64,000 nt of DNA, taken from Vicinamibacterales bacterium. Lineage in GTDB: Bacteria; Acidobacteriota; Vicinamibacteria; Vicinamibacterales; UBA8438. The stretch spans positions 1,701,089 through 1,765,088 of the forward strand of contig CBDAVM010000002.1 of NCBI GenBank assembly GCA_965200895.1, read 5' to 3'. A program made the position numbers and the translations under genes. The notes beneath the pieces were generated by a model. It saw only the letters and a list, made by a program, of their open reading frames with translations. It had not been told where the DNA came from and ran no database searches. Shown one piece after another: positions 56,240 to 63,569 of the stretch; the stretch's first letter is position 1; each line of letters opens with the position of its first letter.

Positions 56240-56620
56240 TCAGTTGACCGGGTTGTCTGGCGCGGTGCGCTCGAGGATCTGGAGCAGCAGACTGCGCATC
56301 TCCCGCATCTCAGTGCGGACCTCGCCGATGTCGGCACGCATCTCGGCACGCATCCCGTGCATCCCGGTGCGCAGCTCGGCGCGCATCTCGCGCATGTCGA
56401 TCTGCATTTGGTCCATCCGGTTGTTGGTGTCGTCGATTCGGGCGTTGAGGGTGGCGTTCTGCTGGAACATCATGCTGATGAGGTAATGATCGTGCGGACG
56501 GCGATCTCGCCGTCGCTTGCTGGCGGGAATGGCCCGCTGCGTCGTGCCGAACACGGCGTGGACGGCCTCGGCGTCGCGCTCGCGGCTGAGGATGGCGTCG
56601 AGACTTCCGTGTTCCATCAT
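56240..56620 (-). CDS. Met/Arg-rich coiled-coil small protein (126 aa), translationally coupled to hsdR
   Basis: Its ATG overlaps the hsdR TGA (ATGA at 56620-56617). The C-terminal half [49 protein letters not shown] shows a heptad-like repeat. No family recognised. Confidence 0.55.
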
Positions 56621-59600
56621 TGCGTCGCCCAACCAGTCGACAGCACCTCGGCCTGCTCCAGCACCGTCCGCGTGGCCGCCTCCTGCCGGTCCGGCGGGTA
56701 GCCGTGCTTCCGCAGGATGCGCTTGACGAGGCGGCGCAGGTTGGCGCGGACGTTTTCGCGCAGCGTCCAGTCGATGGTCACGTTGCCGCGCACCGTCTCG
56801 ACCAGCTCGCGGGCGATGCCGCGCAGCGTCTCGTCGCCGAGCACCTGCACCGCGCTGTCGTTGACGCCCAGTGCGTCGTAGAACGCCAGCTCGTCGTCCG
56901 ACAGTCCCAGCTTCTCGCCACGGGCGCCGGCCTCCCGCAGCTCGCGGGCCAGACCGATCAGCTCCTCGATCACCTGCGCCGCCTCCACCGCGCGGTTCTG
57001 GTAGCGGCGGATCGTCCGCTCCAGCAGTTCGGCGAACGAACGGGCCTGCACGACGTTCTTCCGGCGCCGCGTCGCCAGCTCGCCCTTCAAGAGCTTCTCC
57101 AGCAGCTCGACCGCAAGGTTCGGCCGGCGCATGCCGCGCACCTCATGCAGGAACTCCTCCGACAGGACCGACACGTCCGGCTTCTGCAGTCCTGCCGCGG
57201 CGAAGATGTCCACCACGCCGTCCGGGGCCACCGCCCGCGAGACGATCCGGCGCACCGCGTGGTCCAGCTCCTCGTCGGACTTCGCGTCGGGGCCGGCCCG
57301 CTTCGACAGCGCCGCCCGGAGGTGCTGGAACAGCGACACGTCGTCGCGGATGCGGACCGTCTCCGGATGCGGCACCGCCAGCGCGAACGCCTGCGTCAGC
57401 TCGCGCACCGCCTTCAGGCAGCGCGCCTTGCCGTCGTCCTGCGCCAGCACGTGCTCGAGTGCCGCCGGCAGCAGGCCGAGACGGTCCGCCGGCGAGCCGT
57501 CCGTCCAGGCCGTCCGGTCGAAGCCGTGCAGCAGGCCGCAACAGACCTCGTGCTTCTCCCGCAGCATCCGCACGGCCTGTTCCTGGTCGAGCGCCGTCTC
57601 GCCCGTGCCGCCGCTCTCGGTGTAGGTGGCCAGCGCCCGCTTCAGCTCGTGGGCCAGGCCCAGGTAGTCGACGACCAGCCCGCCCGGCTTGTCCCGGAAC
57701 ACGCGGTTGACCCGTGCGATGGCCTGCATCAGCCCGTGGCCGCGCATCGGCTTGTCGACGTACATCGTGTGCAGGCTCGGGGCGTCGAAGCCGGTCAGCC
57801 ACATGTCGCGCACCAGCACCATGCGCAGCGGATCGGCGGGGTCGCGGAACCGCTTCGCCAGCGCCTCCCGGCGCGCCTTGTTGCCGATGTGGGCCTGCCA
57901 GTTGGGCGGGTCCGACGCCTGACCGGTCATCACGACCTTCAGCGTGCCGCGGTCGTCATCGTCGTCGCGCCATTGCGGGCGCAGGCGGACCAGCGCGCGG
58001 TGGAGGTCGATGCAGATGCGTCGGCTCATGCAGACCACCATCGCCTTGCCATCCAGCGCCTGCTGCCGGCTCTCGAAGTGCTCCACGATGTCGCGGGCCA
58101 CCAGCGCGACGCGTTTCTCGGCGCCGACGATGGCTTCGAGCTGCGCCCACTTCGTCTTCAGCTTCTCGCGGCGGGCGTCCTCCTCGCCCTCGGTCACCTC
58201 CTCGAAGCCGGGGTCGATGCGCGGCTTCTCGGCCTCATCAAGGGCCAGCTTCGCCAGGCGGCTCTCGTAGTAGATGGGCACCGTCGCCCCGTCCTCGACC
58301 GCGCGGGCGATGTCGTAGACGCTGATGTGGTCGCCGAAGACGGCGCGGGTGCTGGCGTCGGCCAGCTCGATGGGCGTGCCGGTGAAGCCGATGAACGAGG
58401 CGTTGGGCAGCGCGTCGCGCATGTGGCGGGCGAAGCCGTCGATGAAGTCATACTGGCTGCGGTGCGCCTCGTCGGCGATCACCACGATGTTGCGCCGGCT
58501 GGACAGCAGCGGATGCCTGTCGCCCTTCTCCTCGGGAAAGAACTTCTGGATCGTCGTGAACACCACGCCGCCCGACTGCACCGTGAGCTTCGCCCGCAGG
58601 TCGGCGCGGCTCTCGGCCTGCACGGGCGGCTGGCGCAGCAGGTCGGCGCAGCGTGAGAACGTCGTGAAGAGCTGGTCGTCGAGGTCGTTGCGGTCGGTCA
58701 GCACTACGATGGTGGGGTTCGCCATCGCCGGCTCGCGGACGATGCGCCCGGCGTAGAAGGCCATCGTCAGGCTCTTGCCCGACCCCTGCGTGTGCCACAC
58801 GACGCCGATGCGCCGGTCGCCGCGCGCGCCGCCCGGCTGGCGGCCCGACTCGTAGCGACCGGGTCGTTCGCGCAGGCGGGCGGACTGCTTCAGGGCCGCC
58901 GCCCGCAGCGTCTCGGCGACGGCCGTCTGCACGGCGTGGAACTGGTGGTAGCCCGCCATTTTCTTGACCAGCGCGCCGCCGCCGTCGTCCTCGAAGACGA
59001 GGAAGTCGCGCACCAGCGCCAGCAGCCGGCGCCGGTCGAAGGCACCTTCGAGCAGCACCTGAAGCTGCGGCAGGCTGGGGTCCGCCAGCCCTTCGCCGGA
59101 GATCGTGCGCCACGGCTTGAACCATTCCCAGCCCGCCGTCAGCGTGCCGAGGCGCGCCTCCAACCCGTCCGACACCACGAGCGCGGCGCCCAACGCGAAC
59201 AGCGACGGAATCTCGGCCTTGTAGGTCTGAAGCTGCCGGAAAGCGGTGTGGATCGTCGCATTCTCGTCGGCGGGGTTCTTCAACTCGATCACGACCAGCG
59301 GCAGGCCGTTGACGAACAGCACGATGTCGGGCCGTCGTTCGCGGCGGCTGTCGACCACCGTGAACTGGTTCACGGCGAGCCAGTCGTTGTTGTCCGGGTC
59401 GTCGAAGTCGAGCACCCGCACCTGGGCGCCGCGCAGCCGGCCGTCGGCGTCGGCGTACTCCACGGTGACGCCGGCGACCAGCATGCGGTGGAAGTCGCGG
59501 TTGCGGGCCTCCAGCGTCGCCCCCGCCGGGCGCGTCAGTCGGCGCAGGGCGTCTTCGAGCGCGTCGTCGGGCAGGTCGGGATTGAGCCGGGTGAGGGCGT

Positions 59601-59757
59601 CGCGCAGCCGGCCGTGCAGCACCACGTCGCCGTAGTCGCCGCGCTCGGCCGCCGGCGTGTCGGGCGCGATGTCCGGGCCGTGGGCGATGGCCCAGCCGAG
59701 CGGCCCCAGCCAGTCGAGCGCGGCGGCCTCAACGTCGGATTCGTCAATGTTCGCCAT
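56617..59757 (-). CDS. hsdR: Type I restriction enzyme R subunit (HsdR), apparently full length
   Basis: N-terminal PD-(D/E)xK region [21 protein letters not shown]2 helicase motifs [27 protein letters not shown] and [10 protein letters not shown]-terminal type-I R-subunit tail ...[10 protein letters not shown]...TIDWT...[17 protein letters not shown] 59757 overlaps the upstream TGA (TGATG). Confidence 0.9.
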
Positions 59758-62565: not shown

Positions 62566-62592
62566 CAGATCACTTCTCGTGGGATCGTCGCC
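62332..62592. repeat. Direct repeat copy 1 (5' end of the 374-aa gene plus ~27 bp upstream)
   Basis: Hand alignment of 62332-62565 with 63667-63900 gives 234 bp, no indels and 9 mismatches (about 96%). Weaker similarity continues about 27 bp past the ATG. Confidence 0.85.
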
Positions 62593-62836
62593 TTCCGGCC
62601 CGCCCCGGGCGATCCGCCAGCCTCGCGATCCACTTCCGGTCGAACCTCTGCGACCACTTGTCGACGGTGGTCGTGGACATGCCGACCTCCTGCGCAACGT
62701 CCGCTTGCCTCATGCCCTGGCCGCGCAGGAGCACGATACGGGGCGCGGAGGCTGTCGCGGGTGATAAACGCCGATCCGGTGTCGGAACAGATGCGTCGGG
62801 CCTGTACCCGTTACCTTTCGAGCGAGTCCGCGACAT
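62570..62836 (-). CDS. Small HTH protein resembling the N-terminal DNA-binding part of IS630-type transposases (fragment or exapted regulator)
   Basis: APRIVLLRGQGMRQADVAQEVGMSTTTVDKWSQRFDRKWIARLADRPGRAGR matches the rariVLl..G.s...iA..lg.s..TV.kW..Rf...G...L.DrpR.GR pattern. No DDE domain follows. The stop lies 4 nt before the 374-aa gene ATG. The ATG 62836 overlaps the upstream gene end by 26 nt. Confidence 0.5.
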   Translation of the reverse strand: MSRTRSKGNGYRPDASVPTPDRRLSPATASAPRIVLLRGQGMRQADVAQEVGMSTTTVDKWSQRFDRKWIARLADRPGRAGRRRSHEK

Positions 62837-63569
62837 CGTAACCCTTCCTCGTGACCTCAAACAAGTTCCGAGCATCCCCTGTGGCCCTGACGAAATCGTT
62901 AGCCTCCAGTTCTTCCATCCCGGCGACCCAGGAAGCCACGTCCCTGGGTCGGACGTTCTGAGGAATGAATGATCTTTCACCCACCTGAATAGACACACCT
63001 GGGGAACCCAGACCGCGGCGGTACTTAATTTTTCCGTCTCCGACCGCGGCAGTCCTGAGAATTTCTTTCGCTTCGCGCGACAACGACTTGCTGAGATCGT
63101 CTGAACTGACGAGCAATAGCTGCCCTACCTCGAGGTTGTTGTTCTCGATACTCCTCCCTCGTGCGCTGTCCGCAGCGAGCCGTGCAGTTACTCGCTCCAC
63201 GATATCCCTGTGAAGCTGTTTGAAGTCACTTGGCGTCGCCGTCCCATACTTGATGACAACCCGATGCCGAATATCGAACGGCAACCGCTCAGATCGGGAC
63301 TTCGCACAGATCATGACTACCGGCCCACCCGCGGCGTACGCGAATCCGAGCTCGTACCACACATTCGGGTTGTCAGTCGTGATGTCGGCAAGACAGATGT
63401 CGGCGTTCCGTATTCGATCCTCGATTGCCTCGATTGGTACATCGACAGCCGGATCGCGATCAACTCGATACGGCTCAACGCCGGCTTCGTTCAGGGCCGG
63501 CGCAAATACTTCGTCGTATCTCTTGTCGTTTTCGTCGTCGAACGGCTGGATCACAAAACACATTGGCAT
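62811..63569 (-). CDS. Low-GC gene: nucleoside 2-deoxyribosyltransferase/TIR-like Rossmann-fold N-terminal domain + unassigned C-terminal domain (252 aa)
   Basis: GAGGAA RBS. CFVIQPFDDENDKRYDEVFAPALNEAG...ADICLADITTDNPNVWYELGFAYAAGGPVVMICAK resembles the D..G/N....E.G.A.A.G.P core of NDT-fold proteins. The C-terminal ~110 aa are unassigned. GC is visibly lower than the flanks. Confidence 0.6.
   Translation of the reverse strand: MPMCFVIQPFDDENDKRYDEVFAPALNEAGVEPYRVDRDPAVDVPIEAIEDRIRNADICLADITTDNPNVWYELGFAYAAGGPVVMICAKSRSERLPFDIRHRVVIKYGTATPSDFKQLHRDIVERVTARLAADSARGRSIENNNLEVGQLLLVSSDDLSKSLSREAKEILRTAAVGDGKIKYRRGLGSPGVSIQVGERSFIPQNVRPRDVASWVAGMEELEANDFVRATGDARNLFEVTRKGYDVADSLER

Follow-up and report, generated by a model that had tools for sequence, protein, structure and literature searches.

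The seven-gene array and its surroundings

The stretch analysed here, referred to as the window, is 64 kb of a Vicinamibacterales bacterium genome (GCA_965200895.1, contig CBDAVM010000002.1). Near its end an array of seven open reading frames (ORFs) on the minus strand, 56240-63569, joins hsdR, the restriction subunit gene of a type I restriction-modification (R-M) system, to a gene for an ImmA/IrrE-type peptidase, a DUF4411 gene and four further ORFs. An original prediction made from the sequence alone offered two alternatives for this array, namely a type I R-M locus that has accreted passengers, or an HsdR protein recruited into a new defence system gated by the protease and a helix-turn-helix (HTH) protein. 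We recovered all seven ORFs at the positions it had listed. Its inventory lacked a 239-nt direct repeat, a truncated copy of the gene for the 374-aa protein of the array and a fragment of a second hsdR gene, all located at the upstream end of the array (Table 1).

Table 1. Features of the array and its upstream flank, from 5' to 3' on the minus strand
Feature	Position	Strand	Length	Basis and remarks
hsdR' fragment	63906..64000 (hsdR-like part 63921-64000)	-		codons ~57-83 of the HsdR N-terminus; cut by the window edge
Truncated PDC-M02B copy	63625..63900	-	91-aa ORF	repeat D1; homology from 63905 to ~63666
Direct repeat D1	62332-62570 and 63667-63905	.	239 nt	repeat search; 96% identity, spacing 1335 nt
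NDT/Rcl(DNPH1)-like, TIR-related protein	62811..63569	-	252 aa	sub-threshold profile and PDB matches
IS630-family transposase N-terminal remnant (HTH only)	62570..62836	-		NCBIfam NF033545 transpos_IS630
PDC-M02B, intact	61441..62565	-	374 aa	PADLOC PDLC04298, E 1.1e-120, residues 1-370
XRE-like HTH + ImmA/IrrE Zn-metallopeptidase	60260..61414	-	384 aa	Peptidase_M78, E 4.8e-17
DUF4411 PIN-like nuclease, putative toxin	59757..60263	-	168 aa	Pfam DUF4411, E 5.1e-54, full length
hsdR, intact	56617..59757	-	1046 aa	ATG at 59757; Pfam, PADLOC, TIGR00348
Coiled-coil ORF	56240..56620	-	126 aa	flank; truncated member of a lineage-specific membrane-anchored coiled-coil family

The junctions between the genes are as tight as originally described. 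The NDT-like and HTH ORFs overlap by 26 nt, the HTH ORF is separated from the gene of the 374-aa protein (hereafter M02B) by 4 nt, and a 26-nt spacer containing a GGGAGGTGG ribosome-binding site lies between M02B and the ImmA gene. The remaining three junctions overlap, by 4 nt at a GTGA between ImmA and DUF4411, by 1 nt at a TGATG between DUF4411 and hsdR, and at an ATGA between hsdR and the coiled-coil ORF. The window sequence is 70% GC; the ORFs nevertheless exceed what is expected by chance at this composition, because five of the seven have family or homologue support and the codon-position GC is gene-like (0.80-0.95 at third positions, GC3, versus 0.42-0.51 at second positions, GC2, in M02B, ImmA, DUF4411, hsdR and the coiled-coil ORF). 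Scans of the region for promoters and terminators gave a signal no better than that of shuffled sequences.

An ordinary HsdR next to a variable cassette slot

The HsdR call of the original prediction holds. The protein contains five Pfam domains (HSDR_N, SWI2_SNF2, ResIII, T1R_D3-like and T1RH-like_C) and scores 577 bits with TIGR00348 and 1063 bits with the PADLOC REase_I model. The nuclease motif (D144...E158-x-K160), the Walker A motif (GSGKS325) and the DEAH motif (DEAH429) are all present, with no internal stops. Over its full length it is 74-88% identical to the hsdR products of related loci, including canonical M-S-R loci.

These related loci come from a scan of one genome per species, which returned 80 loci with M02B relatives at 48-79% identity; the source genome is not in this set. 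The 71 loci with full flanks were used for all counts. Their ORFs were called and clustered, and the cluster representatives were annotated with Pfam and PADLOC. The canonical order is hsdM, an 81-aa ORF, a HEPN gene (NTase_sub_bind), hsdS with an N-terminal MNT domain, DUF4365, M02B, cargo and hsdR. We found DUF4365 directly upstream of M02B in 60 of the 71 loci. On the upstream side there is an hsdS gene in 38 loci and an hsdM gene in 36, and on the downstream side hsdR follows in 41 (full length in 23 of the 41); both hsdS and hsdR are present, with M02B between them, in 35. Another 26 loci are stand-alone DUF4365-M02B pairs with no R-M gene detected, a number obtained with the HsdM, HsdS and HsdR queries of this family only, so that divergent R-M genes may be missed.

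The segment between M02B and hsdR is variable. For 15 loci hsdR begins 23-41 nt past M02B, while in 23 others the gap ranges from 129 to 7554 nt and is occupied by HEC-01 (AAA_21+DUF4276), PDC-M24B (DUF1828/1829), PDC-S01 (AAA_14+DUF4143), ImmA with or without DUF4411, or other genes. ImmA is found downstream of M02B in 6 of the 71 loci and DUF4411 in 4. The M02B-ImmA-DUF4411 order of the window is seen again in three loci (L029, L038 and L070), and a fourth (L018) has hsdS followed by ImmA-DUF4411-hsdR. The window is unusual among its relatives in having no DUF4365. Co-conservation of the extra genes with hsdR, which the original prediction had put forward as a test, is seen for the 374-aa gene and is not seen for the NDT-like gene, the HTH ORF, ImmA, DUF4411 or the coiled-coil ORF.

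The records of the 80 loci, almost all of them metagenome-assembled genomes (MAGs), are labelled Vicinamibacterales, Alphaproteobacteria, Rhodothermales, Acidimicrobiia, Dehalococcoidia, Caldilineaceae and the cyanobacterium Aphanocapsa feldmannii. M02B (48-79% identity) and hsdR (up to 88%) are common to MAGs labelled Acidobacteriota, Alphaproteobacteria, Rhodothermales, Acidimicrobiia, Chloroflexota and Gemmatimonadota and to a cyanobacterium. This distribution suggests that transfer across phyla may have occurred recently inside one habitat. Several of these MAG series presumably derive from marine sponges.

The related R-M loci have a further feature of their own. A HEPN gene (NTase_sub_bind) lies between hsdM and hsdS, and at the N-terminus of the HsdS ORF there is an MNT/Polbeta nucleotidyltransferase domain in the same frame; examples of this arrangement are at 7930-9552 in L047 and 7378-7842 in L063. 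By these domain assignments it is a HEPN-MNT toxin-antitoxin pair whose MNT half appears to have been fused to the specificity subunit HsdS.

PDC-M02B has lost its partner gene

The 374-aa protein had been described as having no nameable family. It has no match in Pfam or NCBIfam, but PADLOC names it PDC-M02B, and we found 1381 homologues in a large protein collection, few of which are named, and those only as "hypothetical protein". The 145 PDC systems are candidates derived from cassettes found inside BREX, DISARM or type I R-M loci, among them PDC-M02 with two genes and 894 instances (bioRxiv 10.1101/2024.01.29.577857). A literature search for "PDC-M02" did not find the name in main texts and found it in one supplement only.

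In the relatives the partner, DUF4365 (PDC-M02A), precedes M02B with a 1-nt TGATG overlap. Neither tblastn nor a profile hidden Markov model (HMM) found DUF4365 in the 64-kb window. Alignment with the relatives shows that about 25 nt of its 3' end precede each of the two M02B copies, including the conserved ATCTGATG stop/start overlap. The M02B of the window is thus an orphan, its DUF4365 partner having been deleted, and it is probably inert or reduced in function.

A first AlphaFold2 model of M02B, built with 25 close homologues, was poor (pLDDT 54.6) and was superseded by a second model built with 62 sequences at 48-93% identity (pLDDT 85.7, pTM 0.78). The top Foldseek matches of the second model in the PDB are mostly OB-folds (SSB, RPA and the anticodon-binding domains of aminoacyl-tRNA synthetases), with compact alignments of about 80-115 columns at E 0.02-0.1 and probabilities of 0.97-0.99; no match reached E 0.001 or better. 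Foldseek output gives no query residue range and the OB-fold was placed by topology: residues 286-368 of the model show the classic beta1-3/helix/beta4-5 arrangement, and therefore the C-terminal ~90 residues (~285-370) are a probable OB-fold. The N-terminal ~280 aa have no solved counterpart in the Foldseek search against the PDB and would, judging from the model, represent a new region or fold. The lone match of the M02B profile among PDB sequences, a de novo designed helical bundle, was judged spurious.

Against viral structures the model has a full-length match to an uncharacterised protein of Leptospira phage LE1 (BFVD Q6NE06, E 4e-20). A second full-length structural relative is A0A8S5QA00 (DUF6575, E 3.5e-6). 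Since such relatives occur in phage and prophage proteomes, the M02B family is also carried by mobile elements. For a widespread candidate, the confident model with its probable C-terminal OB-fold and unmatched N-terminal region provides a first structural hint.

ImmA and DUF4411, a probable Rosmer-like pair

The original calls of DUF4411 (E 5e-54) and ImmA/IrrE (Peptidase_M78, E 5e-17) were both upheld. Among PADLOC models the ImmA protein matches RmrA, the RosmerTA antitoxin, at E 4.1e-16 and capP at E 2.5e-14. Its residues 7-348 align at E 2.3e-26 with PDB chain 9vzy_A, a "HTH cro/C1-type domain-containing protein", the HELAH motif being aligned to HEFVH. No Pfam HTH model matched the protein at E 0.01; we infer the HTH domain from the 9vzy_A alignment and the name of that chain. 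The DUF4411 protein matches PDB chains 9vzy_D and 9vzz_A, both named "DUF4411 family protein", at E 3e-7, and has no match to the PADLOC RmrT models. As both proteins match chains of 9VZY, a complex of such a pair has been solved; our literature search found no paper accompanying that entry.

The view that ImmA/DUF4411 pairs are functionally uncharacterised is therefore out of date. In the classification of Matelska et al. 2017 (PMC5499597), DUF4411.1 has the role of predicted toxin in three-component HTH/DUF955(ImmA)/PIN modules. Ernits et al. (PMC10440598) described antitoxins of the ImmA type (RmrA) that pair with many toxins, PIN-like ones included, and validated one Rosmer system as anti-phage. 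By sequence similarity, we take the pair in the window to be most probably a Rosmer-like module of the toxin-antitoxin or abortive-infection kind, complete in itself. As a close sequence relative of a solved complex, it is a candidate for studying PIN-type Rosmer-like defence.

Duplication scars and inserted cargo upstream of M02B

Repeat D1 duplicates the 5' end of the M02B gene. The translation of the 91-aa ORF in the upstream copy is nearly identical to M02B residues 1-79, and its homology to the M02B genes of other loci stops at 63663-63666. Immediately upstream lies the hsdR' fragment, whose downstream end is joined to what is left of DUF4365, its final ~25 nt. The nucleotide identity of the fragment is 80% to the window's own hsdR at 59513-59591 and 73-83% to the hsdR 5' regions of many related loci, L001, L002, L004, L006 and L018 among them, and its translation, CLNPNLPDDTLDDSPSRPTRRTGATL, aligns with the N-terminal segment of the window's own HsdR. 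An hsdR fragment has therefore been fused to the duplicated start of M02B. No exact match to this hsdR'/M02B' junction was found in JGI metagenomes.

Comparable fragments are found among the relatives. An M02B 5' fragment lies between cassettes in L038 (14286-14713), and there are hsdR 5' fragments in L021 (12244-12642), L030 (9125-9322) and L070. Among the rearranged relatives, which also include L006, L008 and L063, there are tandem or split hsdR genes, and L063 has an insertion inside hsdR.

The two copies of D1 bracket a 1.1-kb insertion, as the repeat flanks the NDT-like gene and the small HTH ORF and the latter ends precisely at the start of the repeat. The HTH ORF matches NF033545 (E 6.1e-9) at model positions 4-55 of 299 only, along with Pfam HTH_29 and HTH_23, and a full-length IS630 DDE transposase (~300-350 aa) is not present at 62570-62836. 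On the basis of this partial coverage the ORF is the remnant of an insertion sequence (IS) comprising the first ~55 positions of the transposase, and we reject its former description as a regulator of the system.

The NDT/TIR-fold call for the neighbouring protein is supported at a sub-threshold level: it scores 24.3 bits with Pfam Nuc_deoxyrib_tr (PF05014), under the gathering cut-off of 28.8, matches the PADLOC TIR effector model at E 1.2e-7, and matches Rcl/DNPH1 in the PDB at E 0.01 with the catalytic YELG segment aligned. Residues 1-135 form a conserved domain belonging to a family of 16,258 representative clusters (E <= 1e-3), and the C-terminal half is variable. The gene has a GC content of 0.56, compared to ~0.70 in its neighbours, and is compositionally foreign inserted cargo. 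A homologue, 56% identical and frameshifted, occurs in the cargo region of L003.

Where hsdM and hsdS may be

The statement that no HsdM or HsdS is visible proved correct for the entire 64-kb window. HsdM gave no match by tblastn with 13 HsdM queries or by a 32-member HMM on the six-frame translation, and no HsdS was found by tblastn or by profile HMM on the same translation. The only match of the HsdS HMM, at 7098-7583 (+), was rejected as a hidden hsdS: the ORF is an MNT nucleotidyltransferase (NTP_transf_2 E 1e-8, Polbeta E 6.5e-7) that resembles the MNT domain fused to HsdS in the relatives. It is possibly half of a further HEPN/MNT pair in the window.

An hsdR fragment upstream of DUF4365-M02B is found in three relatives (L010, L030 and L068), and in all three hsdS and hsdM are located 1-5 kb further upstream. 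By analogy with these loci it is plausible that hsdM and hsdS lie past position 64000, for which we see about an even chance.

The downstream edge of the locus

More than 30 loci share nucleotide homology with the window up to the hsdR stop codon and not beyond it. The coiled-coil ORF, which starts there, is missing from all 80 related loci and is truncated relative to its paralogues; we therefore regard it as flank, outside the conserved locus, and reject a conserved link to hsdR. It is gene-like (GC3 of 0.86) and has 15 homologues, of which 12 come either from the 2.09-Mb contig of origin or from a 2.80-Mb contig that also bears the closest M02B homologue. The homology is limited to the C-terminal 53-64% of the ORF, and the N-terminal transmembrane segment present in the paralogues is missing from the window copy. 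Possibly the gene was truncated by the arrival of the island. A match to the sll1863 family (19 bits, with a cut-off of 35) was treated as coiled-coil composition.

The family itself (P0122-P0135) consists of proteins of ~125-150 aa that begin with a transmembrane segment, contain "ARIDDTN" repeats and have a coiled coil rich in Met, Arg and Glu, with LLQxLERTAPxNPV at its end. The contig of origin has at least 5 copies, including the one in the window, and the 2.80-Mb contig has at least 7. A paralogue in L084 is set among helicase, PLD, methylase-fragment and toxin-antitoxin genes.

The sole tRNA gene of the window, tRNA-Pro (TGG) at 50491-50567 (+), is separated by ~5.7 kb from the end of the locus formed by hsdR. 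The interval is filled by ordinary-looking genes, and tRNA-Pro is therefore not an obvious integration site.

One R-M locus with several embedded modules

Taken together, we consider it likely that the array represents one end of a type I R-M locus, the end next to hsdR, in which independent defence modules are embedded and rearrangement scars remain, and that it is not one system. Loci of this type serve as hot spots where defence cassettes become embedded. Read from 5' to 3' on the minus strand, the locus would comprise the scars of earlier recombination (the hsdR N-terminal fragment and the truncated M02B); the low-GC NDT/Rcl-like gene, which would have come together with an IS630 element of which only the transposase HTH is left; the intact PDC-M02B without its usual DUF4365 nuclease-like partner; a RosmerTA-like pair in which an XRE-ImmA/IrrE Zn-peptidase is the antitoxin and a DUF4411 PIN-like nuclease the toxin; and the intact hsdR, beyond which the coiled-coil ORF would be host flank. 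These modules probably share one transcript. Of the originally proposed co-translated unit the tight junctions stand, while the single unit does not, as the comparative context separates the modules.

Under this scheme HsdR could restrict only with an M2S1 core whose genes lie elsewhere, in all likelihood upstream of 64000. The ImmA/DUF4411 pair would act alone as an abortive-infection module, in which the peptidase-HTH protein would hold the PIN nuclease inactive in a complex and free it upon infection. The overlapping stops and starts would stem from cassettes inserted into an operon and not from obligate co-function. Recombination between conserved genes, M02B and hsdR, would exchange the cassettes and leave behind 5' fragments such as those seen in the window. 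Of the two alternatives in the original prediction, the accretion of passengers by a type I R-M locus is strongly supported as the origin of the array by the frequency of hsdS, hsdM and hsdR, alone and together, around M02B in the relatives.

Several observations weigh against this scheme. The M02B-ImmA-DUF4411-hsdR order recurs in three loci labelled as different phyla and, without M02B, in L018; the block thus moves as a unit at times, a possible hint of functional coupling. The 1-nt overlap of DUF4411 and hsdR, with the translational coupling it implies, is compatible with joint regulation. The 26 relatives in which this family's queries detect no R-M gene, and the end of the window at 64000 with no hsdM or hsdS within it, count on the same side.

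The recurring order and the tight or overlapping junctions from M02B to hsdR are also what would be expected of one new multi-component defence or abortive system, in which HsdR is the motor-nuclease effector gated by the ImmA protease and the HTH protein, M02B with its probable OB-fold is a nucleic-acid sensor, and the M and S subunits, not found within 64 kb, are unneeded. We nevertheless judge such a system highly improbable. ImmA and DUF4411 accompany M02B in only 6 and 4 of the 71 loci, and elsewhere the same slot is filled by HEC-01, PDC-M24B or PDC-S01, or is empty (15 loci). The steady partner of M02B is DUF4365 (60/71), and that pair also exists without an R-M gene (26/71). The HsdR of the window is an ordinary orthologue, as close as 74-88% to canonical HsdRs; the supposed HTH regulator is a transposase remnant; and ImmA/DUF4411 corresponds to a self-contained complex in PDB 9VZY. 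The recruitment of HsdR into a gated system, as originally proposed, is thus not supported by the comparative data.

Alternatively the locus may be a decaying relic which has lost M and S, with hsdR left as an orphan that is turning into a pseudogene, a broken PDC-M02 and no remaining defence. The deletion of DUF4365, the gene fragments and IS remnant upstream and the failure to find M/S within 64 kb all fit such decay, and so does the fact that only 23 of the 41 downstream hsdR genes in relatives are full length, from which decay appears to be common in such loci. M02B, ImmA, DUF4411 and hsdR are, however, all full length compared to their homologues, with catalytic motifs kept (HELAH in ImmA; D-ExK, GSGKS and DEAH in HsdR) and a strongly gene-like GC3 of 0.80-0.95. 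A toxin-antitoxin pair would moreover be self-maintaining whatever the state of the R-M system, and in L010, L030 and L068 hsdS and hsdM sit beyond an hsdR fragment. On balance a relic seems unlikely.

It is also conceivable, as a speculation to which we give little credence, that the M02B-hsdR slot is a dedicated cassette-exchange site, with M02B and the hsdR 5' end as homology arms shuttling cargo among phyla of a shared habitat. Such exchange would account for the M02B and hsdR 5' fragment scars. As part of the same speculation, autoregulation by the HTH-peptidase of ImmA/DUF4411 would control hsdR through the 1-nt coupling, in the manner of a C protein, and time restriction after transfer, and M02B would work with HsdR even without DUF4365.

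If the array is, as we favour, one end of an R-M locus with embedded modules, what looked like a seven-gene "HsdR plus protease" system is a false lead, resolved into separately catalogued modules, an IS remnant and a flanking gene. The visible recombination scars may shed light on the exchange of defence cargo.

Comparison with known systems

The NDT-like protein resembles Rcl (DNPH1)/NDT and TIR effectors in that its N-terminal 135 aa align over YELG and match the PADLOC TIR effector. It differs from NDT/Rcl proteins in scoring under the Pfam cut-off (24.3 vs 28.8 bits), in having no assignment for its C-terminal half and in having no identified partner gene.

Like RosmerTA, the HTH-DUF955-DUF4411 modules and 9VZY, the ImmA/DUF4411 pair consists of an HTH + ImmA/IrrE Zn-peptidase gene that adjoins and overlaps a small toxin-like gene. 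Unlike RosmerTA, its putative toxin is PIN-like with no RmrT match, whereas the validated Rosmer toxins are mostly unannotated or membrane-active (PMC10440598); the gene order, with the antitoxin first, is a further difference from RosmerTA-type modules.

Compared to PDC-M02 as defined in PADLOC, where A is DUF4365 and B is the family of the 374-aa protein, the window has a protein matching B over its full length, and its A gene is gone except for ~25 nt of the 3' end. The OB-fold assignment for PDC-M02B originates in the present analysis and stays a prediction from the model.

Type I R-M loci with embedded defence cassettes have been described under the term "guilt-by-embedding" (Payne et al., bioRxiv 10.1101/2024.01.29.577857). 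The locus studied here differs from them in having no visible hsdM/hsdS in the window, a rearranged upstream part and three or four cargo modules stacked together. The classical embedded example is PrrC, encoded between hsdS and hsdR. The same-strand cassette slot between hsdS and hsdR is shared, and related loci alternate HEC-01, PDC-M24, PDC-S01, PDC-M02 and ImmA/DUF4411. The locus and its relatives thus offer a natural example of guilt-by-embedding, in which one type I R-M lineage, common to MAGs labelled as many phyla at 70-88% protein identity, has a single junction where no fewer than five cassettes alternate.

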